From: a virus
Lineage: Duplodnaviria > Caudoviricetes
DNA length: 64,000 bases
IMG/VR virus record: IMGVR_UViG_2772190757_000004
Location: 6,396 to 70,395 of that record
Strand: one strand, 5' to 3'
Position numbers and translations under genes: made by a program. Positions 2,854 to 64,000 of the stretch are shown here, piece by piece. Position 1 is the stretch's first letter. The number at the start of each line of letters is the position of its first letter. The notes under the pieces were generated by a model, which worked only from the letters and a program-made list of their open reading frames with translations, did not search any database and had not been told where the DNA came from.

Positions 2854-2862
2854 CGCGCGCGT

Positions 2863-3210: not shown

Positions 3211-3211
3211 C

Positions 3212-3246: not shown

Positions 3247-3254
3247 GGGTTAGG

Positions 3255-5480: not shown

Positions 5481-5537
5481 TTACCCCTCCTCGTAAGCCA
5501 CCTCCAGCCGAGCGCCTGGAGTAATCGAGTAGGGGCG

Positions 5538-7269: not shown

Positions 7270-7349
7270 CGCGGCCACCGAGCAAGCTGCAGCGCGAGCG
7301 AGACGATGGCCAGGATGAGCAGGACCAGGGTCATGGTGTCGTGATTCAT
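7266..7349 (-). CDS. 27-aa single-TM peptide
   Basis: MNHDTMTLVLLILAIVSLALQLARWPR; starts directly after the upstream stop and overlaps the lysin start (ATGA). Confidence 0.5.
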   Translation of the reverse strand: MNHDTMTLVLLILAIVSLALQLARWPR

Positions 7350-7757: not shown

Positions 7758-7765
7758 GTCACCTC

Positions 7766-45700: not shown

Positions 45701-46749
45701 GCTGTCGACGCCGACGATCGGCAACTGCGCCGCCGTCCGCGCCGCGTCTTGCCGGGCAGCCTCCGCTGCCATTTCATCGAGCAGTGCCCGGAGTACCGCC
45801 TCAGCGATCCGCGTGAGCCCCGCCTCGTCGCCTGCACAAATCGGGCAACCCGGGTAGTAGCCGTGGTTTTCGTGGGCCGACATCACCGCCAGTTCGGGCG
45901 TATCGGCGCGTGATTCCCACGGGCGTGTCAGCAGCAGCTCGCCCAATTGCTCGGCGGTCAGCGGGAGCGCGTCCCGTCGCGGCGCAAGCGGCCGAGGGGT
46001 CCGCTGCGGATCACGACGACGGGACGCACCCCGCACCCCGGCCCGGCGCACAGGACCGAGGGGACTGATACCGCGCGCCAACACGGCATACACGGCAGAC
46101 ACCAGCAGCGCGAGGACAACGAGAGCGATCAGGAAGGTGCTCATGCGCGCCCCCGAAGCTTGGTCACGGTGACTCGGAACCGGTCACCGTTGGGCATGGA
46201 GTAGATGAATTCGCGTCCGGACCACGGGCAGCAGTCGCAGCGCTGGACCTTGAACCCATCGGCGATCAACGTGTCCCGGATGTCACGGGCCGCATCGTGG
46301 GCGGTGAACGGAACGGCGGGGCGCATCACTGCTCTCCACCTCCCCGCACCACACGCAGACGGGGTTGGGGTGCACCCGGTGACTGCACCGAGGGGGGATC
46401 GGCGACCACAGGGTCTACCGGGTGCACCCCGCCCTCGGGGGCTGCAGGGGACGCCACACCGAGGGAGATAGAGAGCCCGCCACGAATGCGGGCAATGAGA
46501 AGGACGACACCGATGGAGATCAGGCACCAGCCACCGAACACGGCAGCGACGATCAGCAGCGCGTTCATGCCGCACCGCCGATCGAGATCTCGAACGGGAG
46601 CTTGGGCATACGCCCGTCACGCCCGCGTGCGTACCAGACCGGATTCCAGTTCGCGTCCCACAGGACGATCAACGGAGGTCGGCGACGGTGCGCGCGGCGG
46701 ACCTTCATGCGAGGGAAGAACGTACGGACGCGGGGCTTCTGACCGCTGC

Positions 46750-47514
46750 TCATGACGCCACCACCTGCATGCTCAGACGGCGGCGGATAAAATCCACCCC
46801 GGACGGCTTCACCCGAGTCGTGTACGAGACACCCTCGCTACCGTCCGACCGCTCGAAATGTGTAGCCTTCACCGTGAAGTGCTGCATGTACCGCTGATAC
46901 GGGGTATTTCGCATCGCACCCTTCGCGATGAACACGCCGCGCTCGCGCAGCTCCTTGAACAGCTTGTTCTGCGACGAGCCGAGCATCCGCGCCACCGTGC
47001 CGACGAGATACGTGCCGTCGGCCTCCATGAACTGCTCGTAGGCTTCGACCTTTGGCGCGTCGACGGCGGCCTTCGCCTCCAGCTCGCCGTTACGCGCCGT
47101 CAACTCCGCGACTCGGCGCGCCGATACTTCGAGCGCGCGGTGGATCAACTCGTCCTCGGTCAGCGCAGGCACTGCGGCCTCGGCCTCACGAGTCTTCACC
47201 GCGAAATACGCCTGCGCAGCAGCGACCTCCTCCTTGCGGGGATCCCCGTTCATCGCCACGAGATAGCAGGCGAAGCGGGTGAGGTGCAGATCTTCACGCG
47301 GGCGCCCACCGGAGTTTTCGGTGACGCCAACGAAAAGGGCTACTACGTCGAATCCTTGGTTAGCCGCCGCAGCCTTCGCGCGGTCAATCGCCGCGACGAA
47401 GTTGCGCCAGTCCGCGCCGTAGCCGAGCAGCGGCATCAGCGCGCGGGCGGACCAGCGTTCGCCGGGGAGCATGATCGCGTCGAACGGCGAGGCCGCGCGG
47501 GTGAGTTCAGTCAT
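46750..47514 (-). CDS. Antirepressor (DinD/BRO-like N-terminus plus KilA-C/ANT domain)
   Basis: WSARALMPLLGY..WRNF, LTRFACYLVAMNGDPRKEEVAAAQAYFA, DAPKVEAYE, NTPYQ. Confidence 0.85.
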   Translation of the reverse strand: MTELTRAASPFDAIMLPGERWSARALMPLLGYGADWRNFVAAIDRAKAAAANQGFDVVALFVGVTENSGGRPREDLHLTRFACYLVAMNGDPRKEEVAAAQAYFAVKTREAEAAVPALTEDELIHRALEVSARRVAELTARNGELEAKAAVDAPKVEAYEQFMEADGTYLVGTVARMLGSSQNKLFKELRERGVFIAKGAMRNTPYQRYMQHFTVKATHFERSDGSEGVSYTTRVKPSGVDFIRRRLSMQVVAS

Positions 47515-47679
47515 GGGAGAGGAGCCCTTCCATGTAGTCGGCGGCGGCGTCCTCGCATCCGGGAAACGCTTCGAACGACGCCCCATCGGCGATGCCGAAC
47601 CCGGCCTTCTCTGTCTCGTGGAACAGCCATGCCAAGAACCGGTTCGGGTTGAACCCCAGCGCCGAAAGTTCCCCGGACA

Positions 47680-47898
47680 TCAGACGGTCCCGTACGCGGG
47701 CAGTGACTTGATGTAGCGGTCGAGGCTCTCGCGCTCGTAGAGAGTCTTTGCACCTTCTTTGCGGCCGCAGATCACCTCTTCACGCAGAAGCGTCTCCAGC
47801 TTCCACTTCGACAGTCCCGTATAGGCTTTCGCGCCTTCGAGATCGAAGGTGATCGGCCGGATGTCGACCGCCGCGGTGGGCGTCAGGTCGTCGCTCAT
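47680..47898 (-). CDS. Excisionase-like HTH protein
   Basis: AKAYTGLS...GRKEGAKTLY.RESLDRYI. Confidence 0.75.
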   Translation of the reverse strand: MSDDLTPTAAVDIRPITFDLEGAKAYTGLSKWKLETLLREEVICGRKEGAKTLYERESLDRYIKSLPAYGTV

Positions 47899-48134
47899 GA
47901 CGCCTTCTTCCACAGCTCGGGATCCAGGAAGGCGTTGGGCGTGACGCCGAGCGTGCGGGCAATCGCCGCCAGCTCGTCGGTGTTGAAGGGGTTCACGCCG
48001 CGGAGGCGTCGATCCAGGGTCACCCTGGGGATCCCTGAAAGCTCGCCGACTTTGCTCACCGAGTACTCGGAGTCTTCGATCAGGGAATTGACTCGGGCTG
48101 ATATCTCCCGCGACCAAACTTCGCAGCCGTCCAT
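47895..48134 (-). CDS. Cro-like XRE protein
   Basis: SGIPRVTLDRRLRG..PFNTDELAAIARTLGV; divergent from repressor. Confidence 0.8.
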   Translation of the reverse strand: MDGCEVWSREISARVNSLIEDSEYSVSKVGELSGIPRVTLDRRLRGVNPFNTDELAAIARTLGVTPNAFLDPELWKKAS

Positions 48135-48267
48135 ATGGACGACTGTACGCCTATATGGACGGTTTGCAAGAGGGTAACGGCTTTGCATTTGGCACAGTTC
48201 GGTCAAGGCAGGCGACCAAGGACGCCCTAACGTCCTCTTGGGATCTGCCCATATGGGCGGCTAGCCT
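48128..48267. promoter_or_regulatory. Lysis-lysogeny switch: three operators and two leaderless promoters
   Basis: CGTCCATATGGACG 48128-48141, CGCCTATATGGACG 48148-48161, TGCCCATATGGGCG 48246-48259; minus-strand TTGCAA-16-TACAGT; plus-strand -10 TAGCCT. Confidence 0.8.
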
Positions 48268-48273
48268 GAATGC

Positions 48274-48708
48274 ATGGCCACCAACGCCCGCCCCGTAGGC
48301 GATCTCACCCGAGTGATCGCAGCCCACATACGGGCCACGCGCGCGGCGATCCCCATGCGCCAAGACGCCCTCGCCGCCGCCGCGGACATTCCCGTCGACA
48401 CCCTCAGCAAGATCGAGCGGGGGCTCGCCGCAATCGACATGGAGCAGCTAGCGCGGATCGCGGCGGCCTTCAAGCTCAGCCCCGACGATTTCATCGGGAC
48501 TGCGCTCAGCAGGGCCAACTGGCATCACGGAGGGCGCGCCCGCCACCTCCACCAAGTGCAGACCGCCGATCAGGAAGCCCACCCGAAGAACACCGGCAAC
48601 GGCGCCCTCCTCACCCCCAACGACGAGGAGGACGACGAAGTCGGAACCCCGTCCGAGGAGACGCTGCGGATCTTGCGCGCCGACGCCGAGGTGAACCCCG
48701 ACTCCTGA
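48274..48708 (+). CDS. Immunity repressor (XRE HTH)
   Basis: IRATRAA..MRQDALAAAADIPVDTLSKIERG...LARIAAAF. Confidence 0.85.
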   Translation: MATNARPVGDLTRVIAAHIRATRAAIPMRQDALAAAADIPVDTLSKIERGLAAIDMEQLARIAAAFKLSPDDFIGTALSRANWHHGGRARHLHQVQTADQEAHPKNTGNGALLTPNDEEDDEVGTPSEETLRILRADAEVNPDS

Positions 48709-49004
48709 CGCGTGTAGACCTCCGCGCACCAACCCAAATCGGGCACCAGTTTCCAGTGATGGTCACGCGGGCCGCGCGCCCAGACCCTATCGACCTTCGA
48801 TAAGAGCCGGCGCATCTGCTTCGGCGTCAGTCCGCAGCGCGGGATCACGGTCAGTCCCCGCGCGGTGATGCGTAGTCCGCCAATCACCAGCCGGCCGCCG
48901 CGGGACTCGATGTCCCCCTTCGGCTGGAGGATGCGGACGCCGATCGCCTGCATCAGCGCGGGATCGTAGAGCGGCCAGTCGGTTTGAGGTACTTCCTCTT
49001 TCAT
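48570..49004 (-). CDS. Hypothetical protein, weak resemblance to ImmA/IrrE N-terminus
   Basis: YDP...IGVRIL...GLTPKQMRRLL; no HEXXH; 3' end overlaps repressor. Confidence 0.35.
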   Translation of the reverse strand: MKEEVPQTDWPLYDPALMQAIGVRILQPKGDIESRGGRLVIGGLRITARGLTVIPRCGLTPKQMRRLLSKVDRVWARGPRDHHWKLVPDLGWCAEVYTRQESGFTSASARKIRSVSSDGVPTSSSSSSLGVRRAPLPVFFGWAS

Positions 49005-49762
49005 TGGTGAATCTCGGTTCGTCTGCCCCGAACCGCTGCGGTGAGCCCCGACAGACCCGCTGCGCCCGGTGTTCGCTGTATGTAACTGTGCATACGCGGG
49101 CACACAGCCGCTATCGACGGGCCGCTCCCACGCCATGCCGGGTACGTCCGATGCGCGACCCGCTCGAGCGCCCGGCTTCGTGAGCTGCTCCGCGGTCGCC
49201 GTCCCGGCGACAACACTTCACGTCGTTCGGTCAGCTACCAATGGGTGCTCGGTAGTTGAGGCGGTGAACTAGGTGAAGCCCCGACTATAGTCACGCCTGG
49301 CCGGGGCCTTCCAGCAGTTCGGAGGGTTTCGGCCCGGTTTATTGGATTGTGACCGGCGGTCATCGTATGCGCTAATCCTCAGCAAGCCTTCGTGTTTCGG
49401 ATGGGCAGTGGCACTACTGCGTCAAACGCGTTGACCCACCAGGGAAATCAGAGCCGACCGGGTCGTCTGTTGAGATGACGCCGATACCGACATGACGTGT
49501 CTTGTTAGCCACAGCAGCAACATTGCAGGCACGATCAGGTTTGCACGCTACGCGAGAAGTCTTGGAGCAGTGCACATTCAAACCAACCCCCCGGTTCATT
49601 CAACTTGGAGGGTTCGATCCGAAGCACGCAGTGCGCCAGGAGCGCGCCCGGGGCAACCGCGCGGCCGAACGCCCCCGCCCGCGACAGCGGCGTGTCCCAA
49701 TGAGCGACACCAGCACGCGCGTACCAACGGCTCCGTTTTCGATAGCTGGAGGAGCGCGGTCG

Positions 49763-49784
49763 TTTGGCTACAGTTTTGGCTACA
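49763..49784. repeat. Tandem TTTGGCTACA repeats (tyrosine integrase arm-type-like sites)
   Basis: 49763-49772 and 49775-49784, ~60 bp inside the tRNA 3' end. Confidence 0.6.
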
Positions 49785-49816
49785 CGTGACCGATCGGTCC
49801 GATTTCGATGCTCCTC

Positions 49817-49840
49817 CCCTCCCTGGTCAGGGAGGGTTTT
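49817..49840 (+). terminator. Hairpin with T-tract at tRNA 3' flank
   Basis: CCCTCCCTG-GT-CAGGGAGGG-TTTT. Confidence 0.65.
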
Positions 49841-49842
49841 CG

Positions 49843-49916
<74 letters not shown>

Positions 49917-50818: not shown

Positions 50819-51778
50819 GTGAGTTCGATGTCGATCGATATCGAGCCCCCCGTCGCCGCGATGGCGCGCGCCTGGGCTCGTGCGGTGTGCGCCGAGCCGG
50901 GTTCCGGCGCGGCGCCGCAACAGCTGGAACCGGTACTGATCGAAATCGTCGACCGGCTGCTCACCCTGGCCCGGTCCGAGCCGTTCCCCGTGCCCGAGGC
51001 GCGGATGCTCGGCGCCCGGCTCGCCGAGGCGCCGTTCGACCGCATCCGGATGCTCGCGCAGGCCACCCGCTGGCTGCTCGGCTTCCCCTCCGGCGCGCCG
51101 GGCTCGCTGGTCGCCACCCGCTGGCCGTTCGTCGCGAGCCAGGCCATCGACAGCTACGCCCAGGCGCTGCAGGAGCGCGCGCTGGCACAGCAGGAACAGA
51201 ACCTGTCCGCCAAGGTGTCGCTGCGGGTCCAGGAGATCGCGGCGCTGCAGCATCGGCTGCGGCACGAGGCGACCCACGACGCGCTCACCGACCTCGCCAA
51301 CCGGACCCTGCTCCAGGATCGGGTCCGGTTGATGTCCACCGACCCGAACCGCGGCGTCGGCCTGCTGCTGATCGACCTCGATCGCTTCAAGCAGATCAAC
51401 GACGGCTACGGGCACGCGATCGGCGACGAGGTACTGGTCGAACTGGCCAACCGGCTACGCGAGGTGTGCCCGCCCGACACCGTGATCTGCCGGTACGGCG
51501 GCGACGAATTCGTGCTCGCCGTGAATCCGCCGCACAACACCCTCGGCGACCTCGCCCATCGGATCGTGGCCGCCCTGCGCGACCCCGTCTGGTCGACGGC
51601 GGGCCCGGTCCCGGTCTCGGCGAGCGTCGGCACTGCGTACTGCCCGCCCGGAAGTTCCTGCGATTTCAGTGATCTGCTGCGTCGCGCGGACCGCGCGATG
51701 TACTCGGCCAAGACGGCAGGCGGACGCCGCTTCGCGCTCGCCGACGAACCGGAGATCGACACGGCCGTCGCCGGATAG
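50819..51778 (+). CDS. Diguanylate cyclase (GGDEF)
   Basis: ATHDALTDLANR, IDLDRFKQINDGYGH..GDEVL, RYGGDEF, SASVG, ADRAMY.AK. Confidence 0.92.
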   Translation: MSSMSIDIEPPVAAMARAWARAVCAEPGSGAAPQQLEPVLIEIVDRLLTLARSEPFPVPEARMLGARLAEAPFDRIRMLAQATRWLLGFPSGAPGSLVATRWPFVASQAIDSYAQALQERALAQQEQNLSAKVSLRVQEIAALQHRLRHEATHDALTDLANRTLLQDRVRLMSTDPNRGVGLLLIDLDRFKQINDGYGHAIGDEVLVELANRLREVCPPDTVICRYGGDEFVLAVNPPHNTLGDLAHRIVAALRDPVWSTAGPVPVSASVGTAYCPPGSSCDFSDLLRRADRAMYSAKTAGGRRFALADEPEIDTAVAG

Positions 51779-51793
51779 GACGGCCGTGCCCGG

Positions 51794-52117
51794 CTAGTCC
51801 GGCTGGCAGGTGGGGCACCAGAAGAGATTTCGTGCTTCCATGACGGCATGGGCTACGGGGGTGCCGCAGCGACGGCAGGCAGCGCCCTGGCGACGATAGA
51901 CGTAGGTGCGCGGGCGGTCCGGGGCGTAGGACGGTTCCCCGTGATCGTCCTCGGGCCGGACCACGACCATCTTGCCGACCCGCACGCCCACCTTCATCAA
52001 CGCGACCAGATCGGCCCACATCGCGTCCCACTCGTCGGCGGACAGCGCGGTGCCCGGCCGGAACGGCGAAACGTGGTGCCGGAACAGCAGTTCCGCCCGG
52101 TACACGTTGCCGACCCC
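51794..52117 (-). pseudogene. nei: 3' half of host Fpg/Nei DNA glycosylase gene, interrupted by element
   Basis: GVGNVYRAELLF...CRRC...WCPTCQ; homology stops abruptly at 52118. Confidence 0.9.
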
Positions 52118-52123
52118 GGTCGG
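52110..52123. other. Serine recombinase att junction
   Basis: CCGACC-CC-GGTCGG inverted symmetry around a central dinucleotide exactly at the nei breakpoint. Confidence 0.75.
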
Positions 52124-52542
52124 TATTGAATTAGTTCACCCTATCTGACCAGCGGAAATGATGCAACAGCGACCGGGCTCCCCGGATTGGACGCCGCGCG
52201 GCATCCAAGGAGTTCAGGGTTGGAAGAAGTTGGCGATAACAGCAAGCAGTTGATGTCATACCTACCGCAGTCCACGGAACCGGAACTACAGGCAACCGAC
52301 GGTGGAACGACGGTAGGATGCTCGCCAGCTCGTGCCGCGCGTCGCTCACCAGGCTAGACCGTTCCCGTATCCGATACTGATGGTCGCTCCATCGCTTCGA
52401 CGAGCAAGCGGTGACACCAGACAGCGCTGCCGCATGTTTCGCGATAGACCACGATCCGGCTACAAGGAGGACCATCATCTACGAAACGTCCGCAGTCGTG
52501 GTACCAGACCTGACTGAGAACGCTCCCGATACTATCACTGCC

Positions 52543-54876
52543 GTGGCTAACGAGCGCATCACCGAGGACATGGTCGACGGCATCCTCCGCAAGCTAGGCT
52601 TCTACGACCAGCCAGAGGAAGTATTTGTAGAGAAGCAGCAGAGCGAGGTGGCTGCGATTCGAGCAATCTTAGCCAAAGCAAGCAAGACCGGCAAAGGTGG
52701 AGCTGGCTATCCTGAGTTCATCATCACTGAAGCGGCCACTCCGGACGTAGTTGTCGTCATCGAGTGCAAAGCCTCCACTCGTCAACATGTATCAAAAGAC
52801 CGGAATCGTCCAGTAGATTACGCCGTTGATGGCGTACTTCATTACGCCCTGGCATTAAGCAGCAAGTACTCCGTAATCGCAGTTGCGGTAAGTGGAACCC
52901 CGCAATCTAACCGCTGGTCGACGTTCCTAATCCCCCAAGGACAACAGGAGCCACGATCTTTGATCTCCCCCACCGGGGCGGAAATCAATGAACTGGTTCC
53001 CATGCACGATCTCGTAAAGGCGGCCGCATACGACCCCGCCGTCAGATTAAAACGGTCTTCAGACCTGATTGCATTTAGCCAAGAAATGCATCGGTTCATG
53101 CGCGACGAAGCCGAGCTTGAGGAAAAAGAGAAGCCACTCACCGTTGCGGGCACGCTCCTCGCATTATCCAATAGGACATTCGCGCGCACCTATCAGGAGT
53201 ATCCAGCACACGAACTGCCAGGCTACTGGATGGAAACTATCATCAAGGAAGCCAAGGCAGCGAAACTCCCGGTGCCGAAGATCAAGAACATGACGCAACC
53301 CTTCAGCGCAATCGAAGTGCACCCGGAGTTGCGTAAATCATCAAAGACTTACCCCAAGGGTCTGCTAAACGCGATCATTACGATGTTGGCGGATCAGGTT
53401 CTCCCATTTCTCACCATTTATCACGATTTCGATGTCGTGGGCCAGTTCTACGGCGAATTTTTGAAGTACACAGGTGGAGATGGCAAGGGTCTCGGCATCG
53501 TTCTGACTCCGCGCCATCTCACCGAGCTTTTCGTTCTCATCGCCAATGTAGACAAGAGCGATATCGTCCTTGATACATGCGCGGGTACAGGTGGATTTCT
53601 AATCAGCTCAATGATGAAGATGATCGGAAATGCTACAACCGAAGCCGAAGTCGAAGACATCAAAAAGAACCGTTTGATCGGCATCGAGCAACAGGCAACG
53701 ATGTATGCACTTGCGGCATCGAATATGATTCTTCGTGGCGACGGAAAGGCCAACCTTCATCAAGGATCCTGCTTCGATAAGGGAATAACCCAGGAAGTAC
53801 AGTCTCACAAACCTACGGTTGGCCTCATAAACCCGCCTTACGCAAAATCAAAGGCCGACCTTCATGAGCTGCGATTCATCGAGCATATGCTGGACTGCCT
53901 AGAGCCGCACGGGCGCGGTGTGGCCATCGTGCCAGTCTCATGCGCTACGACGCCGAGTATCCATAAATCCAATCTCATGAAGAAGCATACGCTGGAAGCT
54001 GTCATGAGCATGCCACCGGAGATATTTCACCCCGTTGGCGTAATTACTTGCGTCATGGTTTTCACTGCAGGAGTCCCACACGAAAGGTCGGGCAGAAAGA
54101 CTTGGTTCGGCCTTTGGCGCGAGGACGGATACGTCAAGGTAAAGAACCATGGCCGGATCGATCGCGATCACCAATGGCCGAAGATTCGCGATCGTTGGAT
54201 CGAGATATTCCGCAATCGAGAGGTTCACGATGGTGAATCCGCAATGCGCCGAGTGGGCCCAGACGATGAGTGGATCGCTGAAGCATACCTGCAGACAGAC
54301 TACACCACCCTTTCAAAAGGGGAAATCACCTCCGTACTACGAGATTACGCAATGTTCGCGCTGGGCGGAGACGAAGAGCATGACTCGGACCCAATACGCG
54401 GAAACTCCGACAAATGGCTACAGTTTAAACTTGGAGACATCTTCGAGATCCACAAAGGTCGTCGGGTTACAAAAGCAGACCGGAGTTCTGGAACAACACG
54501 CTTTATTGGCGCATCCGAAAGGAATAATGGCGTTACCGATATGGTCAGCCTGGCTCCGATTTTTGATTCAGGAGCGATCACAGTGCCATACAATGGCGCT
54601 TCGGTCGGATGCGCCTTCTATCAGGATAAACCGTTCTTCGCCTGCGACGATGTCAATGTCTTGGTTCCCAAGGATGAACAGGATAAGTTGGCCTTGCTAT
54701 TTGTGGCAGGAGTAATTCGACATGGCAGAGGTCGATTTACGTATGGGTACAAGTGGACGCTCGAAAGGATGAAGGAGAGCACCGTACTTCTTCCGTCGAC
54801 AAATGATGGCAAGCCCGACTGGAAGAGAATGTCGCAGATTGCACGAGAGTTGCCCTTCGGTGGTGCAATCTCGTGA
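52543..54876 (+). CDS. BcgI-alpha-like restriction-modification enzyme (REase + N6-adenine MTase) fused to one TRD
   Basis: MANERITE, GYPEFII..IECKA, DVVGQFYGEFLKY..LGIVLTP, DTCAGTGGF, NPPY, C-terminal FKLGDIFEIHKG TRD; -10 TACTAT shortly upstream of GTG. Confidence 0.85.
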   Translation: MANERITEDMVDGILRKLGFYDQPEEVFVEKQQSEVAAIRAILAKASKTGKGGAGYPEFIITEAATPDVVVVIECKASTRQHVSKDRNRPVDYAVDGVLHYALALSSKYSVIAVAVSGTPQSNRWSTFLIPQGQQEPRSLISPTGAEINELVPMHDLVKAAAYDPAVRLKRSSDLIAFSQEMHRFMRDEAELEEKEKPLTVAGTLLALSNRTFARTYQEYPAHELPGYWMETIIKEAKAAKLPVPKIKNMTQPFSAIEVHPELRKSSKTYPKGLLNAIITMLADQVLPFLTIYHDFDVVGQFYGEFLKYTGGDGKGLGIVLTPRHLTELFVLIANVDKSDIVLDTCAGTGGFLISSMMKMIGNATTEAEVEDIKKNRLIGIEQQATMYALAASNMILRGDGKANLHQGSCFDKGITQEVQSHKPTVGLINPPYAKSKADLHELRFIEHMLDCLEPHGRGVAIVPVSCATTPSIHKSNLMKKHTLEAVMSMPPEIFHPVGVITCVMVFTAGVPHERSGRKTWFGLWREDGYVKVKNHGRIDRDHQWPKIRDRWIEIFRNREVHDGESAMRRVGPDDEWIAEAYLQTDYTTLSKGEITSVLRDYAMFALGGDEEHDSDPIRGNSDKWLQFKLGDIFEIHKGRRVTKADRSSGTTRFIGASERNNGVTDMVSLAPIFDSGAITVPYNGASVGCAFYQDKPFFACDDVNVLVPKDEQDKLALLFVAGVIRHGRGRFTYGYKWTLERMKESTVLLPSTNDGKPDWKRMSQIARELPFGGAIS

Positions 54877-54921: not shown

Positions 54922-55734
54922 ATGCCTGAGGGCCATACCCTGCACCGCTTAGCGAAACTGCACCACAGACGATTCGCTGGCGGAGTGGTTCGAATATCGA
55001 GCCCCCAAGGGCGTTTCGCCGACGGCGCAGCGTTGATCGACGGGCAGATGCTGACCCAGGCTGACGCCTGGGGTAAGCATCTCCTGCACCATTACGCATC
55101 GGGGCTGGTCGTGCATGTACACCTCGGGCTGTACGGCAAGTTCACCGAATCTACTGCACCCTTTGGCGATCCGGTCGGGCAAGTGCGTATGCGGATGATT
55201 GGCGCGGGCCGGTCCGGCGAGGTCTTCGGTGCCGATTTACGTGGCCCTACCGCGTGCGAGATCTTGCATGAATCTGAGGTGGAAACCCTCGTCGCCCGCC
55301 TCGGCCCGGATCCGTTGCGCCGTGATGCCGACCCGGACCTCGCCTGGCAGCGCATTCGCCGCTCTCAGCGTCCCATCGGCGCACTGCTCATGGACCAAGG
55401 CGTCATTGCTGGAGTTGGCAATGTATATCGCGCTGAGCTGCTGTTCCGGCATGGTATTTCCCCGCATCGTCCCGGCCGTGAGGTGTCGACGGGAGAGTGG
55501 GGCGAGCTTTGGGCCGACTTGGTGGAGTTGATGCAGGTTGGAGTGCAACGCGGCAAGATGCACGTGGTTCGGTCCGAACACGACCATGGCGCACCGTCCT
55601 ACGCCGCTGACCGACCGCGCACCTATGTATACCGCCGTGTCGGCGAACCCTGCCGCCTGTGCGGGACGACAGTCCTCCACGCGGTGATGGAGAGCCGAAA
55701 CCTGTTCTGGTGCCCCACCTGCCAGCCCTGCTGA
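54922..55734 (+). CDS. nei: Fpg/Nei family DNA glycosylase (element-borne intact copy)
   Basis: MPEGH catalytic N-terminus, GKHL, HLGLYG, LGPDPL, GVGNVYRAE, C4 zinc finger. Confidence 0.93.
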   Translation: MPEGHTLHRLAKLHHRRFAGGVVRISSPQGRFADGAALIDGQMLTQADAWGKHLLHHYASGLVVHVHLGLYGKFTESTAPFGDPVGQVRMRMIGAGRSGEVFGADLRGPTACEILHESEVETLVARLGPDPLRRDADPDLAWQRIRRSQRPIGALLMDQGVIAGVGNVYRAELLFRHGISPHRPGREVSTGEWGELWADLVELMQVGVQRGKMHVVRSEHDHGAPSYAADRPRTYVYRRVGEPCRLCGTTVLHAVMESRNLFWCPTCQPC

Positions 55735-55767: not shown

Positions 55768-56250
55768 TCAATTGCGGGCCGCACCGCTCGGCCAGACGAT
55801 ATCGACGGGAAGGTTCTTCCCCCTCGCGAGTTCCACGACTGTGGCGGTGCCGCCTTGCTCGCTGGGCTGACCGTCCCATACCGCGATCAGCCGGTCGCAC
55901 GTTCCTACGACGGCCTCGTTGGCTGCCTCGTAGGCTTGCGTGCCCGCATCGTCGAAGTCCATTACGCGCACGGTTTCCGCGCGCGACATCAGAGTGTCGA
56001 ACTGTTCGGCGTGGTCCGGCTTGACCTTGCGCTCCCGGTAGTTGCGGGACGGCAGAACAACTTCCAGTCGCCCACCGGCATCGAGCACGGCTTGCGCGAA
56101 GACGCTGTCGGCCCCGCGCGCGATACAGCTGACACCGATCAGTTCGGCTGGATCTCCTGCGGCGGCCAGGATGCGGGTGATCTCCGCGTAGACCAGCGGG
56201 ACCGAATCCGCGGTGATGTTCATGTGCCCGGTGACGCCGATGCGAGTCAT
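55768..56250 (-). CDS. SLOG-superfamily (YpsA-like) protein
   Basis: IGVTGH, SCIARGAD..FAQAVL, AYEAAN, LIAVWDG..GGTA.VV. Confidence 0.8.
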   Translation of the reverse strand: MTRIGVTGHMNITADSVPLVYAEITRILAAAGDPAELIGVSCIARGADSVFAQAVLDAGGRLEVVLPSRNYRERKVKPDHAEQFDTLMSRAETVRVMDFDDAGTQAYEAANEAVVGTCDRLIAVWDGQPSEQGGTATVVELARGKNLPVDIVWPSGAARN

Positions 56251-56258
56251 GCCCTTCT

Positions 56259-57667
56259 CTATACCGGGTCGGCGACCAGCACGCGCATCCTGTCCCGCAA
56301 CTCGGCCACCGCGCGAACGTCCGCCACATACTCGGTGCGCGCGAACATCTCCCGCAGTTTGACCCGCACGCGATCGGAGGCGGTCTGTTCGACGGTGGAC
56401 AGGGCGGCGTGCCCCAGTCGGCACGCTTCCTCGAGCTCGCCCTGGATCAGACGGGCCTCCGCCAGTCCGAGTTGGTCCAGTGCAGTACTGCGCAACCGGT
56501 TGGGTTGCCGCAACACGATCGCCTTGTCGATCTGCTCGGCAGCCTCGCTCGCGAATTCTGGTGCGCGCTGCGCCATTTCGAGGAGACGACCGCCGATGGT
56601 GCCTGCCATTTCCGAGGCGTCGAAGTAGCCGATCCAGTAGGGGTCGATCGTCGGTGTTGCCTCGGCCATGGTCTCCTGGGCTCGATCGCAGGCGCGGTGG
56701 AATGCCGAGGGGCGATCGAGGTGGGCATAGGCCCACGCTTCGCGGGTGCGCAGCATGGCTTGGACAGTCGGTGTCGCCGCAGCTGCCTGATCCTGTGCCA
56801 GGCGCACGAGTTCCAGAGCATCGGCGGTTCGGCCGAGATACAGCAGTTGTCGCGCCATGCCCGCGAGAGAGTTGGCGGCGAAGGCCGAATCACCTGCCGC
56901 GCGTGCAGCCCGGACTGCGAGCACGTAGTAGCGCTGGGCAGCGGCTTGCTGTCCGGAATCCCACGACATCGTCGCCACGGTTTCGGCGAGATGAGCAAGC
57001 ACACCTGTGAGACGACGGCGAACTTCCGGCGGCTGAGTCTGCGTGAGCAGTTCGTTGACCTCGTTGAGTTGGCCGATGACGGCTTTGCGTCGCAGTCCCC
57101 GCCGTACTGGTCATCCCACTCGCGAAATACTCGGGCGGCCATCTCCAACTGCTCGACTTCCTGCACCCCGATTCGGCACGCCGAAGTCACTGTCGGAGTG
57201 GCGGACTGGCCGGTTCCATAGAGCAGCCAGCGTTCGAGCGGTTCAAGCAGGTTGGCTCCGACGACTACCCCAAGCAGAGCGCGGGTGGCTTGGCGGCGAT
57301 CCACCATCAGGTCCTTTCGGGTGAGGTCATCGGCAATCGCCGTGCAGTCGGCGGTCCACACGCCCGGTTCCCACTGTGCGGCAATGGAATCGGCCGGATC
57401 ATCGGTATCACCGGGGAGAACGATCTGAATGCGATTCTTCTTGGCGGCCAGGAATTTGGCGCGCTGCTGTGGGGTAGCGCGCGTGAGGTGGGTTTCCATC
57501 AGCTCGCCGAAGAACGACGGCAGCGTAACCGTGGTCCCGCGTCGCGCCCACTTCTTTACCGTGCTCAACGCGACGCCGGTGCGCTCGGCGAACTCGGGTT
57601 GGGTGACCCCGAGCGCTATGCGCAGCGCGGTTGCGTCGGCACCTGTCCATGCCTCTTGCATACCCAT
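56259..57667 (-). pseudogene. XRE-HTH plus TPR-like regulator, frameshifted in a G-run
   Basis: WTGADATALR..TQPEFAERTGV; adding one G at 57097-57100 gives DDQYGGGLRRKAVIGQL, joining the TPR-like C-terminal ORF. Confidence 0.75.
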
Positions 57668-57803
57668 TACCTCACCTGTGCGGGGAGATGCGTGAACCGA
57701 GCGTATACCCGCGTGCACTGGCGTCACCTTCAATCACGGCAAACCCGGAGACACGCTGGTCACAGCGCCAAATCTGACCGAGCAGAATCCGAAGGAGCCC
57801 GAC

Positions 57804-57977
57804 ATGGAAGTCATCCTCGCCATCACATTGGCTGCCATGGTGATGCTCGCGGCAGCTCTATCATCCAGCCGCGCAACCCATCCGGCGCAGCACCGAGCCG
57901 GGGCCAGCGTTGCCGACATACAGGCACGCCTTGCAGCAGAGCGCCGACGTGCATATGAGCCAACCAGGCGGTGGTGA
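57804..57977 (+). CDS. Small membrane-anchored protein
   Basis: RBS AAGGAG; MEVILAITLAAMVMLAAAL...SVADIQARL. Confidence 0.55.
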   Translation: MEVILAITLAAMVMLAAALSSSRATHPAQHRAGASVADIQARLAAERRRAYEPTRRW

Positions 57978-57979
57978 CG

Positions 57980-58324
57980 ATGTTCGAAACCCCGAGGGCC
58001 ATAGGCTATTTGCGCAGCGATGTGTCCGGAGCACGCCAGCAGTGGGAAGAAATGCAGAACCGCAGCCTCGCCAAACGGCTCGGCTACACGCTCGCGAAAA
58101 CCGTCGTGTTCAGCGAGCACATCGAAGACCCCATCCAACGGCTGATCAACGTCGTCCGCCGGATGCGCGCGGAGGCGGTGGTCGTGCCGAATCTGGAGCA
58201 CTTCGGCGGAACGGTGCCCGACGAGCTGGTGCGGGTGGTCGATGTGATCACCGTCGATCCGCACGACACCTACGCACGCTGGATCATTCCGCCGGACACG
58301 ACCATTGAAATGCGGTCACGGTGA
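57980..58324 (+). CDS. Resolvase N-terminal-like small protein
   Basis: AIGYLRSDVSG...LAKRLGY...EAVVVP.LEH. Confidence 0.6.
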   Translation: MFETPRAIGYLRSDVSGARQQWEEMQNRSLAKRLGYTLAKTVVFSEHIEDPIQRLINVVRRMRAEAVVVPNLEHFGGTVPDELVRVVDVITVDPHDTYARWIIPPDTTIEMRSR

Positions 58325-58734
58325 CGGCCGCCTTGGTCCCGATATCGCCGCCGCGCGGTACCTACGATGTCGGTGTCCGCTGCTTCCTCGGGCTGCGCCG
58401 ATTCGCGCGAGAGGCGGGCGTGCCCTATGACCGGCTCCAGCGATGGCGCGTGCACGGCCCGTACTGGGTGCCGCCGCCAGTAGTCATGATCGGCCGTTGG
58501 CCGGGATGGACGCTGCCCATGATCCAGACGTGGGCACCGATCGTCGTAGCCGGTGCCGGACCAGTTCCACCGGAATGGCGCTGGCCTGAGCCGACGATCG
58601 ATGCGGCGGACTCGGTGACCATGTGCCGCCGCCATGGGATCGCGCACGCGGGGCTCTGGCTGCGGATCAGTCGCGGCGACATTCCGCGCCCGGACATCTG
58701 GGTTGATGACAAACCCGGCTGGATCACCCAGTGA
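58321..58734 (+). CDS. Hypothetical protein with duplicated AlpA-like motif
   Basis: VPPPVVMIGRWPGW and IPRPDIWVDDKPGW repeats. Confidence 0.5.
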   Translation: MTAALVPISPPRGTYDVGVRCFLGLRRFAREAGVPYDRLQRWRVHGPYWVPPPVVMIGRWPGWTLPMIQTWAPIVVAGAGPVPPEWRWPEPTIDAADSVTMCRRHGIAHAGLWLRISRGDIPRPDIWVDDKPGWITQ

Positions 58735-59440
58735 GCCGGGGCTAGTTCACGCGGTCACAGCCCGTCCTGCACCGGAATCCGACACTGCGACGGTCCCCCG
58801 ACACCTCGGGGTTCCGCTGACCTCGACCGAGAGGTGCTCGAGCAGCACCGCAAGATGTACTGCCACAACCGAATGAATCCGGACGAGAACTACCGGGTTC
58901 TACGCGAGCCCCCAGCCTCGAGGCTGGGGGCTCGCCCCATGTGTAGGTCATACCAACCGGTGTCCCGATCGTTTTGTGATCCGGTGTCGCAAAACAGGCC
59001 CCCCCCCGTGCAACTACCGGGCGAGAGGACTTAGCGAATTCGCCGGGAAGGAGGACCGCTGTGTCATATCGCGCGAGAAGTCGGACGCCGTGGTTAGGAG
59101 CAGGTCAGGAGGGGTGTCCCGCACCCTTCCGATCGGTTGTCGAACGTTGGGGAGCTCCTGCCTTTGCTGAGGACACGAGGAGAAAAGAATGCCGACGAGC
59201 CGAGGAGGTTGCGATGCGTGAAGTTCGGCGCAGCGTTCGGTGCCGGTGGTCGATGGGCCGCCCGGCGCGCGGTGGTGGGGCGGGCGCTATCCCAATCTTT
59301 ATCCCGTCCTACCCGGATTTTCAGGCAGCGGGGTGCCAGTACTGGGTGCACGAGAAATCTACGGCCACGATCCGAGGAGTAGCCATGAGCAAGGTCCCTC
59401 CGTCTATCCCGTGTCAGGTGCGCTGGCGGGAGGCATTCGC

Positions 59441-60607
59441 ATGATCATGCAGCTCGGTCGGAATCTCGATGCGTTCGTCCAGGGACTGTCCGCCGGAGTC
59501 TGGCGGCTGATCAACCTGGGCTGGCGGTGGCTGGTCATCGCCGCCGTGGTTTTCGTTCTCGCGCGGCTGGTGCTGGGCTGGCTGGTCGGCTGGTACCGCT
59601 GCCGGGAGGCGCGGGAGGCGGTGTGGTTGCAGGTCACCGTGCCCGCGACGATGGGCCGGGATGCGGGCGAGCGGTTCGCCCGGTCGCTGGCCGGCATGCT
59701 GCACCGGACTCACCGCCGGCCGTGGCGGGCGCGGCATGTGGCGTGTGAGTTCTTCGCCACCGACGACGCGACGACGGTAGGGCTGTGGGTGCCGCCCGCG
59801 TTCGCGCCGAAAGACGTTCTTGCCGCCATTCTCGGCGCGTGGCCCGGCGCGCAGGTCGAACAGGTGACCCCACCGCCGACGCTGGAGGGACGCGGTGGGG
59901 TGTGCGGGCGAGAGATCGCGCCGCGCGCTGGGGAATGGTCACCGCTGGTGGACGCGACCGCCAGGCGGGTGGTGGACGCGGACGACTACGACCCGTTGGG
60001 GCAGGTGCTGACCGCACTGGCCGAACGCGGGCCGGGTGAGACCGCCGTCGTTCAGGTGATCGTGGCCGCGCAGCGCGGCACGGGTTCCCGCGGCTTGGGT
60101 GTGCGGGTGCTCGACGGTACCGGCGGGCTGTGCCTGTGGCTGCTGCGGGAACTGCTGGACTTCCTTCAGCCCGGCCCGGCCCCTGCCCGCACCGGTTATC
60201 GTGCGCGGAGTACGCAGGATCCCGATCCGGTTGCCGCGCAATGGTTTCGAGACGTCGTGGTCAAGAAGACGGATCGGCAGCATCTGCGGGTGACCGTGCG
60301 TGCGGGTGTGGCGGGGTCGGTCCCGGCCCGCTATCGGCGCGGTGCGGTCACGCGGCTGACCGATGGCTATGACCAGGTTGTCACCGCTGGTGACGGCCTG
60401 ATCACGCGCAGGGTCGCGCGCGCCGCGCGGCGTATCGCCGCCCGGCGGCCGGGGCCGGGATTCGTCGCCACGGTCGCCGAACTCGCCGCGCTGTGGCATC
60501 TCCCGGCCCATGGCGGCACCTACGGCATGGACACCAGCCCCGCCCGCACCCGCGCCGCCGGACGCCGCGCCCCGCGCATCCCCGACTGGAAGGACGATCA
60601 GCAATGA
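59441..60607 (+). CDS. Membrane protein associated with coupling ATPase
   Basis: N-terminal TM, WLQVTVP, HVACE, AWPGA, DPL..VL.AL, ELAALWHLP; ATGA-coupled to T4CP. Confidence 0.65.
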   Translation: MIMQLGRNLDAFVQGLSAGVWRLINLGWRWLVIAAVVFVLARLVLGWLVGWYRCREAREAVWLQVTVPATMGRDAGERFARSLAGMLHRTHRRPWRARHVACEFFATDDATTVGLWVPPAFAPKDVLAAILGAWPGAQVEQVTPPPTLEGRGGVCGREIAPRAGEWSPLVDATARRVVDADDYDPLGQVLTALAERGPGETAVVQVIVAAQRGTGSRGLGVRVLDGTGGLCLWLLRELLDFLQPGPAPARTGYRARSTQDPDPVAAQWFRDVVVKKTDRQHLRVTVRAGVAGSVPARYRRGAVTRLTDGYDQVVTAGDGLITRRVARAARRIAARRPGPGFVATVAELAALWHLPAHGGTYGMDTSPARTRAAGRRAPRIPDWKDDQQ

Positions 60608-62034
60608 ACGACTCGCCACGCTTCGACAAGCCCGCGAATCCCGATGACAACACGCAGCCTTCGGGCGATCACCCGTTGGTGAACCGGCTACGGCTGGCCA
60701 CACCAGACGACGTGCGCCGCCAGTCACCCAAGCCGCTGGGACTGGCCACCGATGGCGACATGATCGGGTTGACGGTGGCGGGCGCACGCCATCACGTCCA
60801 TGTGCCGGGGGTGACCGGTTCCGGGAAATCGACGTGGCTGGCCAACCTGACGCTGGCCGAGGCCGCCGCCGGGCGTGGGGTGGTGTTGCTGGACTGCCAG
60901 GGCGATCTGGCCAACAACGTGCTCGCGCGGCTGCCCGCGTATGCGGCCGAACGGCTGGTGATCTTGGACCCGGCCGAACGGGACGCGCCCCCGGCGTGGA
61001 ACGTGCTCGCCGCCCCCGCCGGGCTGGCCGATGACCTCGAGGGCCGCGAGTTCGCGGCCGAGACCGTGATCGGCACCTTCCGCAAACCCCACGCCCAATG
61101 GTGGGGACCGCGTATGGAGGAGATCTTCCGGGCGGCGTGCTTGACTGCGGCCCGCCGTCCGGGCTCCACCCTGGCCGATGTGATACCGCTGCTGACCGTG
61201 CGCGGCCATCACCGCGCCATCACCACCCGCTACGGGGAACCTGGTGGGTTCGAAGGGTTTTGGAGCGGCTACGACGCTTTGAGCGACCCGCAACGCCAAC
61301 AGCTGTACGGGCCGGTGGTCTCACGGTTGCGGTCGGTGCTGTCGCACCGCTTCGCCGGGGATCTGCTCGCGGCCCCGGCTTCCACGTTCGACCTGACCGA
61401 AATCCTGAACGGCGGAATACTCATCGCCCGAATCCCCAAGGGCGAGATCACCGACTACGGCAGTCAACTCGTCGGGTCGCTGCTGTTGTCGGGGTTGTGG
61501 TCGGCGATCACCCGCCGCGCCGGACTATCACCCGATCAGCGGCTCGACGCGACCATCATCGTGGACGAATGCCACAATTTCCTGCATTTACCGATCGGCG
61601 TCGATGACGCCTTGGCCGAGGCGCGCGGCTATCGGGTGTCGCTGGTCCTCGCGCACCAGCACATGGCGCAATTGCCGCCGGAAATGCGGGAAGCGATCGA
61701 CGCGAACGCCCGCAATAAGATCGTGTTCACCGTGTCTCCGGACGACGGCCGGAAATTCGGGCCGCATTTCGCGCCCTATTTTCAGCCAGCGGATCTGTCG
61801 AACCGGCCCGGCTACGAAGTGACCGCGCGTATCATTCATGACGGCAGAGCCTTTCCGCCGTTCAGCCTGGACACCGTGCCATTACCGTCCGAAATAGCGG
61901 GACGCGCGGACGAGTTACGGACTGCGGCACGGAATTTGACCGGCCTCTCACAGCAACAGCGGACGCTACTTAAACACCGGACCGAATTGTCGGACGCGTA
62001 TAAACGCAAATTCGATCCAGGGTCGGCAGCGTGA
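60604..62034 (+). CDS. VirD4/TraD-like type IV coupling ATPase
   Basis: HVHVPGVTGSGKST, LLDCQGDL, IIVDECHNF, EARGY..LAHQ. Confidence 0.85.
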   Translation: MNDSPRFDKPANPDDNTQPSGDHPLVNRLRLATPDDVRRQSPKPLGLATDGDMIGLTVAGARHHVHVPGVTGSGKSTWLANLTLAEAAAGRGVVLLDCQGDLANNVLARLPAYAAERLVILDPAERDAPPAWNVLAAPAGLADDLEGREFAAETVIGTFRKPHAQWWGPRMEEIFRAACLTAARRPGSTLADVIPLLTVRGHHRAITTRYGEPGGFEGFWSGYDALSDPQRQQLYGPVVSRLRSVLSHRFAGDLLAAPASTFDLTEILNGGILIARIPKGEITDYGSQLVGSLLLSGLWSAITRRAGLSPDQRLDATIIVDECHNFLHLPIGVDDALAEARGYRVSLVLAHQHMAQLPPEMREAIDANARNKIVFTVSPDDGRKFGPHFAPYFQPADLSNRPGYEVTARIIHDGRAFPPFSLDTVPLPSEIAGRADELRTAARNLTGLSQQQRTLLKHRTELSDAYKRKFDPGSAA

Positions 62035-62036
62035 GG

Positions 62037-62111
62037 CCATTGGGTTTCCCAATGGGTGTCCCACAGCCCTCCCGTTGGGTGTCCCGCTTAAGAGTGGGAC
62101 ACCCAACGGGA
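62037..62111. promoter_or_regulatory. Inverted-repeat cluster, candidate oriT/nick site
   Basis: 16-bp perfect IR 62070-62085/62096-62111; 8-bp IR 62037-62055; TGGGT(G/T)TCCC iterated. Confidence 0.6.
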
Positions 62112-62159
62112 CACTCCCGGTCAACCATCACCCCAGCTCGGCAACGGAGGCGGCTCGCC

Positions 62160-63023
62160 ATGACGAAACCCCCACTGGCTTCTATAGCCACCCGACACAG
62201 GATCACCACCGCCGACGCCATCACCACCCAACGACAACTCACCTCCCGCGATATCGAGCTATTGGAATTGCTCGACACTCATCACGTTCTCACTTCCACG
62301 CAGATCGCGCGGTTGCTGTTCGCCAGTGAGAACGTGGCACGGAAACGGCTTGCCAAGCTCACCGCACGCGGCGTGATCGGGCGCTTCCGGTCATGCCCCG
62401 GCCCCGGCACCCTGCCGTGGCGCTACACCCTCGGACCGCTCGGCGCGATGATCATCGCCGCCAGCCACGGGCACACGCTGCCCACCGCCAGCAAAACACA
62501 CGAGAAAATGCTCCGACTATCCCGATCCCAGCGACTCGATCACCTGCTCGGCATAAATGAATTCTTCTCACACCTGAAATTCGACGCGCGAAACAAGGAC
62601 GGCCAGGAGCTTCTGGAATGGTGGAACGAACGCGACACGGCCGAAATCTGTGCGAACATCGTGCGGCCTGACGGATACGGCCACTGGGAAGAACACGGAA
62701 AACGGATACGCTTCTTCCTCGAATACGACAACGGCACCGAGACGATAGAAGAACTCGTAGGCAAGCTCGGCCGATATCGAGAATTGGCACAAGCAGGAAT
62801 GAACCTGCCGGTGCTCTTCGTATTCACCGGAGAGCTGCGGCAGAACAACTTTCATCGCCACCTCAGCGCACAACCCGCGCTCACCGCCGGACTCGCCGTG
62901 GCGAGCACGGCAACCGGCGATATCGACGCCATGAGCCCAGCGGGGCCCGTGTGGCTGCCCGCTGGCAGCCACGACCGCCAACGGCTGATCGCACTCACCG
63001 AACCCACGGCACTCGCCGCCTGA
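62160..63023 (+). CDS. Replication-relaxation family protein
   Basis: LTSRDIELL..H.VLTSTQI, HLLGINEFF, VRPDGYG, FFLEYDNGTE..L.GKL.RY. Confidence 0.85.
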   Translation: MTKPPLASIATRHRITTADAITTQRQLTSRDIELLELLDTHHVLTSTQIARLLFASENVARKRLAKLTARGVIGRFRSCPGPGTLPWRYTLGPLGAMIIAASHGHTLPTASKTHEKMLRLSRSQRLDHLLGINEFFSHLKFDARNKDGQELLEWWNERDTAEICANIVRPDGYGHWEEHGKRIRFFLEYDNGTETIEELVGKLGRYRELAQAGMNLPVLFVFTGELRQNNFHRHLSAQPALTAGLAVASTATGDIDAMSPAGPVWLPAGSHDRQRLIALTEPTALAA

Positions 63024-63041: not shown

Positions 63042-63236
63042 ATGCCCGAGGACACCCCCGCACAGAACGAAGGCCCGGCCGACCAGCCGGGCACCGAACC
63101 CGATCAGCTCAGCTTCGACGCCGAACTCATCGACTACTGGCGGGGAATCACCTCCCGATTCCCCGCCATGAACGACGAACACTTTGCCGCCGTCGCCGCC
63201 ATAGTCCGCAAAATCGACGAGCGTCGGGCAGCCTAG
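63042..63236 (+). CDS. Small hypothetical protein (possible recombination directionality factor)
   Basis: 64 aa with RBS, convergent with and overlapping the recombinase stop. Confidence 0.45.
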   Translation: MPEDTPAQNEGPADQPGTEPDQLSFDAELIDYWRGITSRFPAMNDEHFAAVAAIVRKIDERRAA

Positions 63237-64000
63237 CTCTTCCCTCTGTTCTTCTTCTTGACGTCCTCGATCGCAATCCGGCCCGGGTCGAAATGAGCGC
63301 GCCCATTGCGTACGGCTGTCTTGATCACGACTCGCTTCCCGGTAAGCGCTTGGCGGAACATTCCCCGTTTCTCGGTTGTGGTAGCCGCCTTCCATCGGGC
63401 CGTCCATTCATCAAGCGATGCCTTTGCGTCTTCCGCGGATACAGGACCGTCCGGGACGGTGCCGATCTCGTCGAGCTTGGCATTCAATTCGGCAATCTGC
63501 TGTTCCAAGGGGTCCATGGCCGCGTCGTACCGGGCCACGGTTATCTGGCGGCGGCCCAACCTCTTTGAGAGCTCGAGGGCCAACTGCTCGCACTCAGCGC
63601 GTTCCGCCATGAGGGGTCGGCGCGCTTCCTCGATGGCTTTGGATGCTGCCTCCACCGCCTCGGCGTGACGGGGGTCTGCCAGGATGCCAACAACGATCGC
63701 GCCTATGTGCTTGTCCAATTCGCGCTGGTCGATGGTGATCTTGCCGCAGCCGCCATTAATCGCACGCTTCTGACACCAGTATTGCCGCCGCATCTTTCCA
63801 TCCGGGTAGGGCCGCAGATTGGCTTTGGGCCGCCCGCTGAGGTGATGCCCGCAGAGGTCGCAGAACACGAGCCCCGAGCACAGATAGGTTTCCGAGTTCG
63901 GTCGGCCCCGTTGCCGGGATGCGAACAGCGCCATGAGCCTGTCCCAGTCCTTTTCGGCAACGATGGGCGTGCCCGCTGCCTTCGCAACGATCTCACCCAT
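63233..64000 (-). CDS. Large serine recombinase, C-terminal part
   Basis: PIVAEKDW, YLCSGLVFCDLCG, YWC..GGCGK zinc ribbon, coiled coil, W..ATTTEKR. Confidence 0.88.
   Translation of the reverse strand: MGEIVAKAAGTPIVAEKDWDRLMALFASRQRGRPNSETYLCSGLVFCDLCGHHLSGRPKANLRPYPDGKMRRQYWCQKRAINGGCGKITIDQRELDKHIGAIVVGILADPRHAEAVEAASKAIEEARRPLMAERAECEQLALELSKRLGRRQITVARYDAAMDPLEQQIAELNAKLDEIGTVPDGPVSAEDAKASLDEWTARWKAATTTEKRGMFRQALTGKRVVIKTAVRNGRAHFDPGRIAIEDVKKKNRGKS

Follow-up and report, generated by a model that had tools for sequence, protein, structure and literature searches.

Large serine integrases are known to insert their elements inside coding genes, as is the case for phiC31, Bxb1, A118/LI, SPbeta SprA and phiRv1, and the attB sites of characterised members typically measure approximately 42 nt (14 codons). 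Other elements rebuild the end of the target gene at attP, as in the tRNA-integrating islands, e14 and phage 21 in icd, and SXT in prfC; the replacement end of icd carries many synonymous differences. In phage T4, ‘intronless homing’ and marker exclusion involve free-standing homing endonucleases linked to a resistant allele, and synthetic cleave-and-rescue gene drives carry a recoded rescue copy.

The window analysed here (the whole stretch of 64,000 nucleotides; positions beyond its end are given as window-equivalents) contains much of a 12.6-kb integrative element that encodes a large serine recombinase (LSR) and has split the chromosomal nei1 gene of a Nocardia-like genome. The inserted DNA extends from position 52118 to window-equivalent ~64739. 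Insertion is at a GG dinucleotide, and the element carries an intact replacement for the split gene, in which the stretch homologous to the landing site is exceptionally diverged. The element is probably mobilisable. The coordinates of all features are collected in Table 1.

Table 1. Features of the element, its junctions and the split host gene (window positions unless stated otherwise).
Feature	Position	Strand	Remarks
Host GGDEF gene	50819-51778	+	Directly adjoins the host nei1 3' piece, 16 nt apart
Host nei1 3' piece	51794..52117	-	Codons 164-270 + stop, 107 codons; starts at the Gly of AGVGN; by tblastn and Pfam
attR	52112..52140	-	Element P arm GGTGAACTAATTCAATACCGACC joined to host at 8-nt core; by junction comparison
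N6-adenine methylase fused to type I specificity (HsdS-like) domain	52411..54876	+	821 aa; between attR and cargo nei
Cargo nei	54922..55734	+	Intact 270-aa Fpg/Nei glycosylase, nei1 type; opposite strand to split host gene
Cargo stretch homologous to attB footprint	55393..55434	+	42 nt, codons 158-171
Three-gene module	55768..58380	-	Counterpart block in genome G021 (83% nt identity)
Module: 167-aa protein	55768-56271	-	
Module: HTH/TPR regulator	56262-57667	-	
Module: 117-aa protein	57971-58324	+	
Transfer/replication genes	59240..63023	+	455-aa protein, 513-aa coupling-protein-like ATPase, 330-aa Replic_Relax; by Pfam
LSR gene	63233..64000, on to window-equivalent 64692 (L001 13911-15370)	-	Pfam Resolvase, Recombinase, Zn_ribbon_recom
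attL	window-equivalent ~64700-64747		Host nei 5' piece, then rpiB beyond
Host nei1 5' piece	C4:105417-105911 (= window 64740-65234, ~0.7 kb beyond window end)	-	aa 1-165; adjoins rpiB

The two pieces of the host gene lie on the same strand. The 3' piece aligns with residues 159-269 of the cargo protein (71% identity by tblastn) and retains the C-terminal part of the Pfam H2TH domain together with zf-FPG_IleRS, and the 5' piece was located by a whole-genome tblastn search with the cargo protein. At the attR junction GGTGAACTAATTCAATACCGACC is followed by GGGGTCGGCAAC. At the attL junction, on the rpiB side, the host frame ...GTC GCC GGG GTC runs on into AGCGTATAATTAG, with the LSR gene within 40 nt. 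Both junctions have an 8-nt core in common, CCGGGGTC, and P arm and nei 3' piece are joined in the same way in G001, G003, G004, G005, G006, L139 and G021. A classical replacement of the 3' end at attP was ruled out, as the host 5' piece hits a stop after the junction; it is also contradicted by the cargo nei gene, which is complete and on the other strand. A search for a second internal attP or P arm that might bound a cargo bay returned one P-arm match within 3 mismatches and no second one, and the sole long inverted repeats found are the nei copies themselves (317 nt at 73% identity and 113 nt at 81%). Outside the element, window 45000-49916 contains a tRNA-Gly(TCC) gene (49843-49916, -) and, leftward of it, short open reading frames, some with helix–turn–helix-like N termini, at a slightly lower GC content; this block may be a second element, integrated at the tRNA.

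From attL to attR the gene order is LSR, Replic_Relax, coupling-protein-like ATPase, 455-aa protein, three-gene module, cargo nei and methylase-specificity fusion. The LSR matches Pfam Resolvase over residues 8-153 (3.7e-16), and its N terminus reads ...IYARVSRLGDDRQRST, which we take to be the catalytic-serine motif. The Recombinase (5.6e-5) and Zn_ribbon_recom (5.6e-7) domains are spread across two frames that are contiguous in the 483-aa L092 orthologue. By tblastn this orthologue matches frame 1 with residues 1-219 and frame 3 with residues 215-483, which places a frameshift near codon 219 (L001 14700-14745, window-equivalent ~64020-64070). The LSR of this genome is not intact, lying in two frames, unless a sequencing error is responsible. 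The HTH/TPR regulator is similarly in two frames (shift at ~57098), its intact 469-aa G021 homologue matching frame -1 with residues 1-236 and frame -3 with residues 191-469. The two frameshifts suggest that the element is decaying and immobilised, or else that they are assembly errors; since both genes are affected, the element is probably locked in.

The transfer and replication genes give Pfam matches to TrwB_AAD_bind (3.9e-8), TraG-D_C and Replic_Relax (8.7e-43), the 455-aa protein belonging to no known family, and their homologues adjoin the LSR in L096. The methylase-specificity fusion matches N6_Mtase (9e-25) and Methylase_S (4e-17), with an N-terminal part of 330 aa without assignment, which makes it a candidate single-chain restriction-modification or defence gene. 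Its GC content of ~52%, against ~65-70% in its surroundings, and a gap between attR and cargo of only ~240 bp in the related L139 suggest cargo acquired later, apparently by a recent insertion.

A query with the LSR N terminus found 49 loci in species genomes, 26 of which (L082-L107) are 68-87% identical over the best segment, and the nearest phage integrases among 50,697 phage records are <33% identical. The host side of attL in L082-L107 nearly always ends in Ala-Gly-Val/Ile/Ala codons. The gene entered is the nei1 beside rpiB in L082, L083 and L086, as for the present element, and another Fpg/Nei paralog in L084, L088, L092, L093 and L105. In L085, L087, L089 and L090 it encodes a protein ending ...GFG(T/S)TARL(L/V)AGV (form GFGTTARLLAGV), and at nine Nocardia loci the proteins end ...GLRR.E(L/V)A.LAG(V/A), endings presumed to be XRE-type helix–turn–helix regions. 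One LSR family lands at Ala-Gly-Val codons (GCC GGG GTC and variants) in at least three unrelated kinds of gene, and across L082-L107, where the junctions lie ~40-90 nt upstream of the LSR starts, the target class tracks the LSR subclade. A second LSR copy is found behind the cargo gene in L092 (6290-7500, lacking its 5' end) and in L106 (7019-8020), the latter meeting a non-nei sequence (...CTCGTCGTCGGGGTC) within the first element at an attL-type junction of its own, so these elements would be nested or in tandem.

Both junctions were obtained for six genomes. In all six attL/attR pairs the host bases end after GG in attL and begin with GG in attR, and because host and element bases differ on either side, the exchanged dinucleotide is GG. 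It forms the first two bases of the codon for Gly164, within the AGVGN of the H2TH motif. GGTG(T)AACTAATT occurs in both the P and the P' arm, in inverted orientation, which makes attP a quasi-palindrome. The GG is unchanged in the cargo copy (GGA). As a change to it would alter the protein, any immunity of the cargo copy would have to come from the flanking recognition bases.

The cargo gene contains all three Pfam domains expected of the glycosylase (Fapy_DNA_glyco, H2TH and zf-FPG_IleRS). The protein starts MPEGHTL (Pro2-Glu3) and ends in a four-cysteine CRLC...CPTC zinc finger, residues presumed to have their usual catalytic roles. It matches MutM/Nei proteins of the PDB at 5e-26 to 3e-21, residues 32-268 aligning with MutM 1ee8, and no NCBIfam equivalog reaches its cut-off. 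Its closest relatives are the chromosomal nei1 genes of other Nocardia (80% aa identity), it is 71-75% identical to the host pieces, and the other Nei paralogs in G000 are 25-31% identical to it. The best 80 genome matches are all full-length and 79 lie beside rpiB, so the rescue gene is the same gene as the one disrupted, a nei1 cargo for a nei1 target. Judged from sequence, the intact element-borne gene would be able to replace the lost function, and the cargo copy is probably now the working nei1 of the cell. Further cargo copies of this type were not found, the best matches being 80% identical among 185,579 species genomes, 79% among metagenome contigs and 78% among 24 genomes of the same genus. 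One of these 24, the unpublished G040, bears on none of the conclusions. With no closer relative in genomes or metagenome contigs, the nei1 cargo is a sample of one.

The landing-site codons of the host read GGG GTC GGC AAC GTG TAC CGG GCG GAA, a string with a single occurrence (52091-52117, -; 0 matches in 100 shuffles), and those of the cargo GGA GTT GGC AAT GTA TAT CGC GCT GAG (55411-55437, +). A first, sequence-only reading of the window had described the latter as a synonymous recoding placed precisely at the integration site, mostly with A/T-ending codons that the genome disfavours, and each element of this description holds. Eight of the nine codons are unlike and all nine amino acids alike; the host 3' piece opens at 52117 (-), i.e. 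at the junction; and family-relative usage in 1008 long open reading frames of the same genome is low for the cargo codons (GGA 0.064, GTT 0.027, GTA 0.028, GCT 0.024, ATT 0.056, AAT 0.18, TAT 0.21). Two of the eight differences, CGC and GAG, are the commoner spellings among chromosomal nei1 genes. The C-terminal identity to which the same reading had drawn attention is likewise present, 21 nt being the same at 51803-51823 (-) and 55705-55725 (+). It needs no special cause, since all the codons are preferred or sole ones for conserved zinc-finger residues.

The spelling of the landing site has to be set against the divergence of the pair as a whole. The 269 aligned codons comprise 94 that are identical, 106 with synonymous and 69 with non-synonymous differences. 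More than half (53%, 106/200) of the codons conserved in amino acid already differ gene-wide. Saturation of synonymous sites is thus almost reached from one end of the gene to the other, and this goes half way to the uniformly saturated divergence that had been named beforehand as counting against selection. GC3 is 0.71 in the cargo gene against 0.87 in the host gene. These values are what would be expected if the cargo gene had been captured long ago from another Nocardia lineage and had drifted to the lower GC3 of mobile DNA, the cluster of differences at the landing site being due to chance. Chromosomal nei1 genes vary freely at the same synonymous positions, and the AGVGN region is the longest run of conserved amino acids in nei1, which on such a neutral history would explain why a cluster is visible there.

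The 42-nt footprint itself nevertheless exceeds the prediction from saturation in three comparisons. Its location is set independently by the junction, and its size of 14 codons was chosen after the data had been seen. Third positions differ at 13/14 footprint codons against 134/255 elsewhere (Fisher p=0.0022). Among the 12 conserved degenerate codons of the footprint 11 differ, where saturation predicts ~54-57% and the cargo's own codon usage 6.5-6.8 codons (p=0.005-0.0065); in the latter test the att windows take the four most extreme places among 245. Finally, the cargo gene differs from the host attB at 16/42 nt, as compared with 4-13 (median 9) in 80 chromosomal nei1 genes, and so ranks 1/81, although several of these genes are equally diverged gene-wide. 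A/T-ending codons make up 9/14 of the footprint against 29% of the whole gene.

The sliding-window analysis that had been suggested as a check gave a different answer when applied to this pair. The maxima of the scans for synonymous, third-position and A/T-ending differences fall at codons 153-163 at most window sizes, but the permutation scans are not significant (p=0.11-0.5; window 9 p=0.33). The densest cluster of rare codons lies away from the att stretch, at cargo codons 16-25 (window 54967-54996; 7/10, scan p=0.015, against only 6/14 at the att stretch), and consists of AGA, CGA, GCT, GGA, GTT, CGA and ATA. Both results are in keeping with the neutral history. The excess over saturation and the ranking among chromosomal genes pull the other way, and we regard a purely neutral origin of the cargo spelling as a serious but somewhat doubtful explanation.

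A second system bears on the same question. In G006, a Pseudonocardiaceae MAG (L092, L135 and L136), a related and intact LSR has split another Nei paralog, which shares 28% identity with the nei1 cargo. Immediately behind the LSR, on the opposite strand, is a full copy of this paralog (82% aa identity to the host 5' piece). A decayed version of this layout is present in G007 (L106). Cargo-type copies of the second paralog are also found in L138, L139 and L140 (85-90% identity) and in L157 (76%). Remnants of a second copy are nearby in L139, L140 and L157, and in L139 the cargo gene starts only ~240 bp from a clear attR, which is joined to a deleted and frameshifted host 3' piece. The genomes of L138, L139, L140 and L157 yielded no LSR of this family. 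The clade L136-L140 has support of 100/99, and the placement of L157 in the tree is loose; the cargo label needs two changes on the tree, one being also compatible, and L157 shows no mosaic pattern. L157 was considered as a third independent cargo lineage and rejected. It has all four clade-fixed third positions in common with L136-L140, and the cargo of the second paralog is therefore counted as one lineage.

As a whole, the footprint of the G006 host–cargo pair shows no enrichment (7/14 third positions against 119/250, p=0.54; 8/42 nt differ), as the neutral history would have it. A narrower comparison, over 267 columns, considered third positions at which the cargo clade has a fixed state that none of 16 close, syntenic chromosomal genes shares; L138 (from the unpublished genome G051) was left out here and enters only the count of seven copies below. 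Three of the ten clade-fixed third positions fall within the 14-codon footprint (4 sequences, without L138; p=0.011), and two of four when L157 is added (p=0.014). The latter two belong to the codons for Val/Leu, 13 nt from the crossover, and Tyr, 16 nt from it, and at both the nei1 cargo agrees in state. In 7/7 cargo copies from the two lineages Asn, Val/Leu and Tyr are spelled AAT-NTA-TAT, a three-codon motif that was picked after the data had been seen and that rests on only two independent cargo lineages. T/A/T at +10/+13/+16 from the crossover occurs in 0/152 chromosomal copies (80 nei1 and 72 of the other paralog), and the right halves of attB sites in use read AAC-NNN-TAC in 8/8. Taken singly, TAT is found in 35/80 and AAT in 16/80 chromosomal nei1 genes, and one used attB (L139) carries A at +13. 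Drift to a lower GC3 does not account readily for the recurrence of AAT-NTA-TAT in a second cargo lineage, nor for its being kept across the divergence of that lineage.

These observations can be accommodated by the following scheme. The element entered nei1 by serine-recombinase exchange of attP × attB, with the GG of Gly164 as crossover. With an active LSR at hand, a full copy of the target beside attP would be open to intramolecular attP × attB recombination, which would invert or split the element. Only copies in which the att-homologous stretch is not recognised would therefore persist. The unrecognised spelling could arise through filtering at capture, through later selection at synonymous sites, or both. 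Such a scheme would account for 13/14 third positions differing while the functionally conserved residues are all kept, as well as for AAT-NTA-TAT in the second cargo lineage as opposed to AAC-NNN-TAC in used attB sites.

A local constraint apart from the recombinase would leave a similar mark, for instance mRNA structure, translation pausing in H2TH, an internal signal on either strand or the avoidance of long identical tracts. The inverted repeats formed by cargo and host copies could recombine homologously, the relatives G021 and L157 are rearranged, and the cargo gene has a further group of rare codons towards its 5' end. Were homologous recombination being avoided, divergence would be favoured throughout the gene and not in one 42-nt stretch, and the recoded stretch coincides with an independently mapped crossover; a constraint of this kind is highly improbable.

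We return to self-immunity, the sequence-only reading's proposal that selection destroyed attB in the cargo copy. The insertion at these codons, the full-length nei, the top-ranked divergence and the shared AAT-NTA-TAT all bear it out in part, while selection itself is not secured. Selection for self-immunity on the att-site spelling of the cargo is plausible, and we lean slightly towards it. The wider proposition, that this LSR family acquired a full rescue copy of the paralog it destroys at least twice independently and that the footprint has been held in a spelling its recombinase cannot use, we consider an even call.

Ten genomes (G000-G009) have a member of the family in an Fpg/Nei gene, and a full copy of the targeted paralog is present in three of them (G000, G006 and G007). 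In both cargo lineages the type of copy is that of the targeted paralog. No cargo copy was detected with the queries used in the other 7/10 genomes, most of which are incomplete MAGs, and from these the rescue copy appears to be optional. L139, L140, L157 and G021 contain a cargo-type or restored copy together with host remnants and without a recombinase. The cargo-type copy is intact in L139 (3400-7400), the host 5' piece is down to aa 1-43 and the LSR is gone. Here the rescue copy has outlived its element and replaced the original gene.

In G021, a complete genome of the same genus (L302 = G021:C1:2371000-2384000, 2839-12497; L303), a full nei1 lies beside rpiB, and after it come a short, inverted remnant of nei (aa 88-127) and a 5.9-kb block with a 1200-aa protein. 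Further on lies a genuine attR in which the same P arm is joined to a nei 3' piece, and then the module of 117-aa, HTH-TPR and 167-aa proteins (83% nt). The G021 genome is entirely without LSRs of this family. L157 similarly has a full-length nei followed by an inverted nei remnant. Simple inversion models were tried that would derive the G021 arrangement from one like that of the window, and none fitted.

If the att-site spelling is selected, the synonymous codons of a housekeeping gene would have been shaped by an element's avoidance of its own recombinase. This would be a discrimination between self and non-self of a kind not known to have been described for site-specific integrases, and a natural counterpart of the recoded rescue genes in synthetic gene drives. 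It would also provide a natural experiment on which attB bases are read, the native and ‘immune’ sites encoding the same peptide, from which integrase engineering would benefit. Whether or not selection is involved, insertion into a repair gene can evidently be made less costly when the element supplies a substitute, and this substitute can outlive its element, as in L139, L140, L157 and G021.

Full-text literature searches found no report of LSR elements in Fpg/Nei genes or with a recoded copy of the target. In the largest survey of LSRs the word ‘glycosylase’ occurs 0 times in the main text, and its supplementary tables may list such targets (Durrant et al., 2022; PMC10083194). In its content the element resembles those of the AICE type, being 12.6 kb in length and residing in an actinomycete host with an integrase, a Replic_Relax protein and a coupling-protein-like ATPase. 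Unlike AICEs, it has no FtsK/TraB-type translocase or Rep protein detectable with Pfam or NCBIfam.

With the large serine integrases the LSR shares the Resolvase, Recombinase and zinc-ribbon domains and a gene beside attP, as well as attL/attR hybrids around a 2-nt crossover, a quasi-palindromic attP and a conserved coding motif as target. On these features the LSR and its sites represent an ordinary, if distant, member of that group. It differs from the known members in targeting the AGV/AGI codons of Fpg/Nei genes and in that a complete second copy of the target gene is carried. As with the elements in icd, prfC and tRNA genes, the function of the target is predicted to be kept after insertion. 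Unlike in those elements, the present junctions restore nothing, attL meeting a stop after AGVSV, and rescue falls to a full-length gene of its own, located 2.8 kb within the element and on the opposite strand. Finally, in contrast to the homing endonucleases and the cleave-and-rescue drives, the enzyme is a site-specific recombinase and not a nuclease, and the target is not known to be essential. What the present system has in common with them is a selfish element accompanied by a copy of its target that preserves the protein and is putatively spelled to evade the element's own enzyme.
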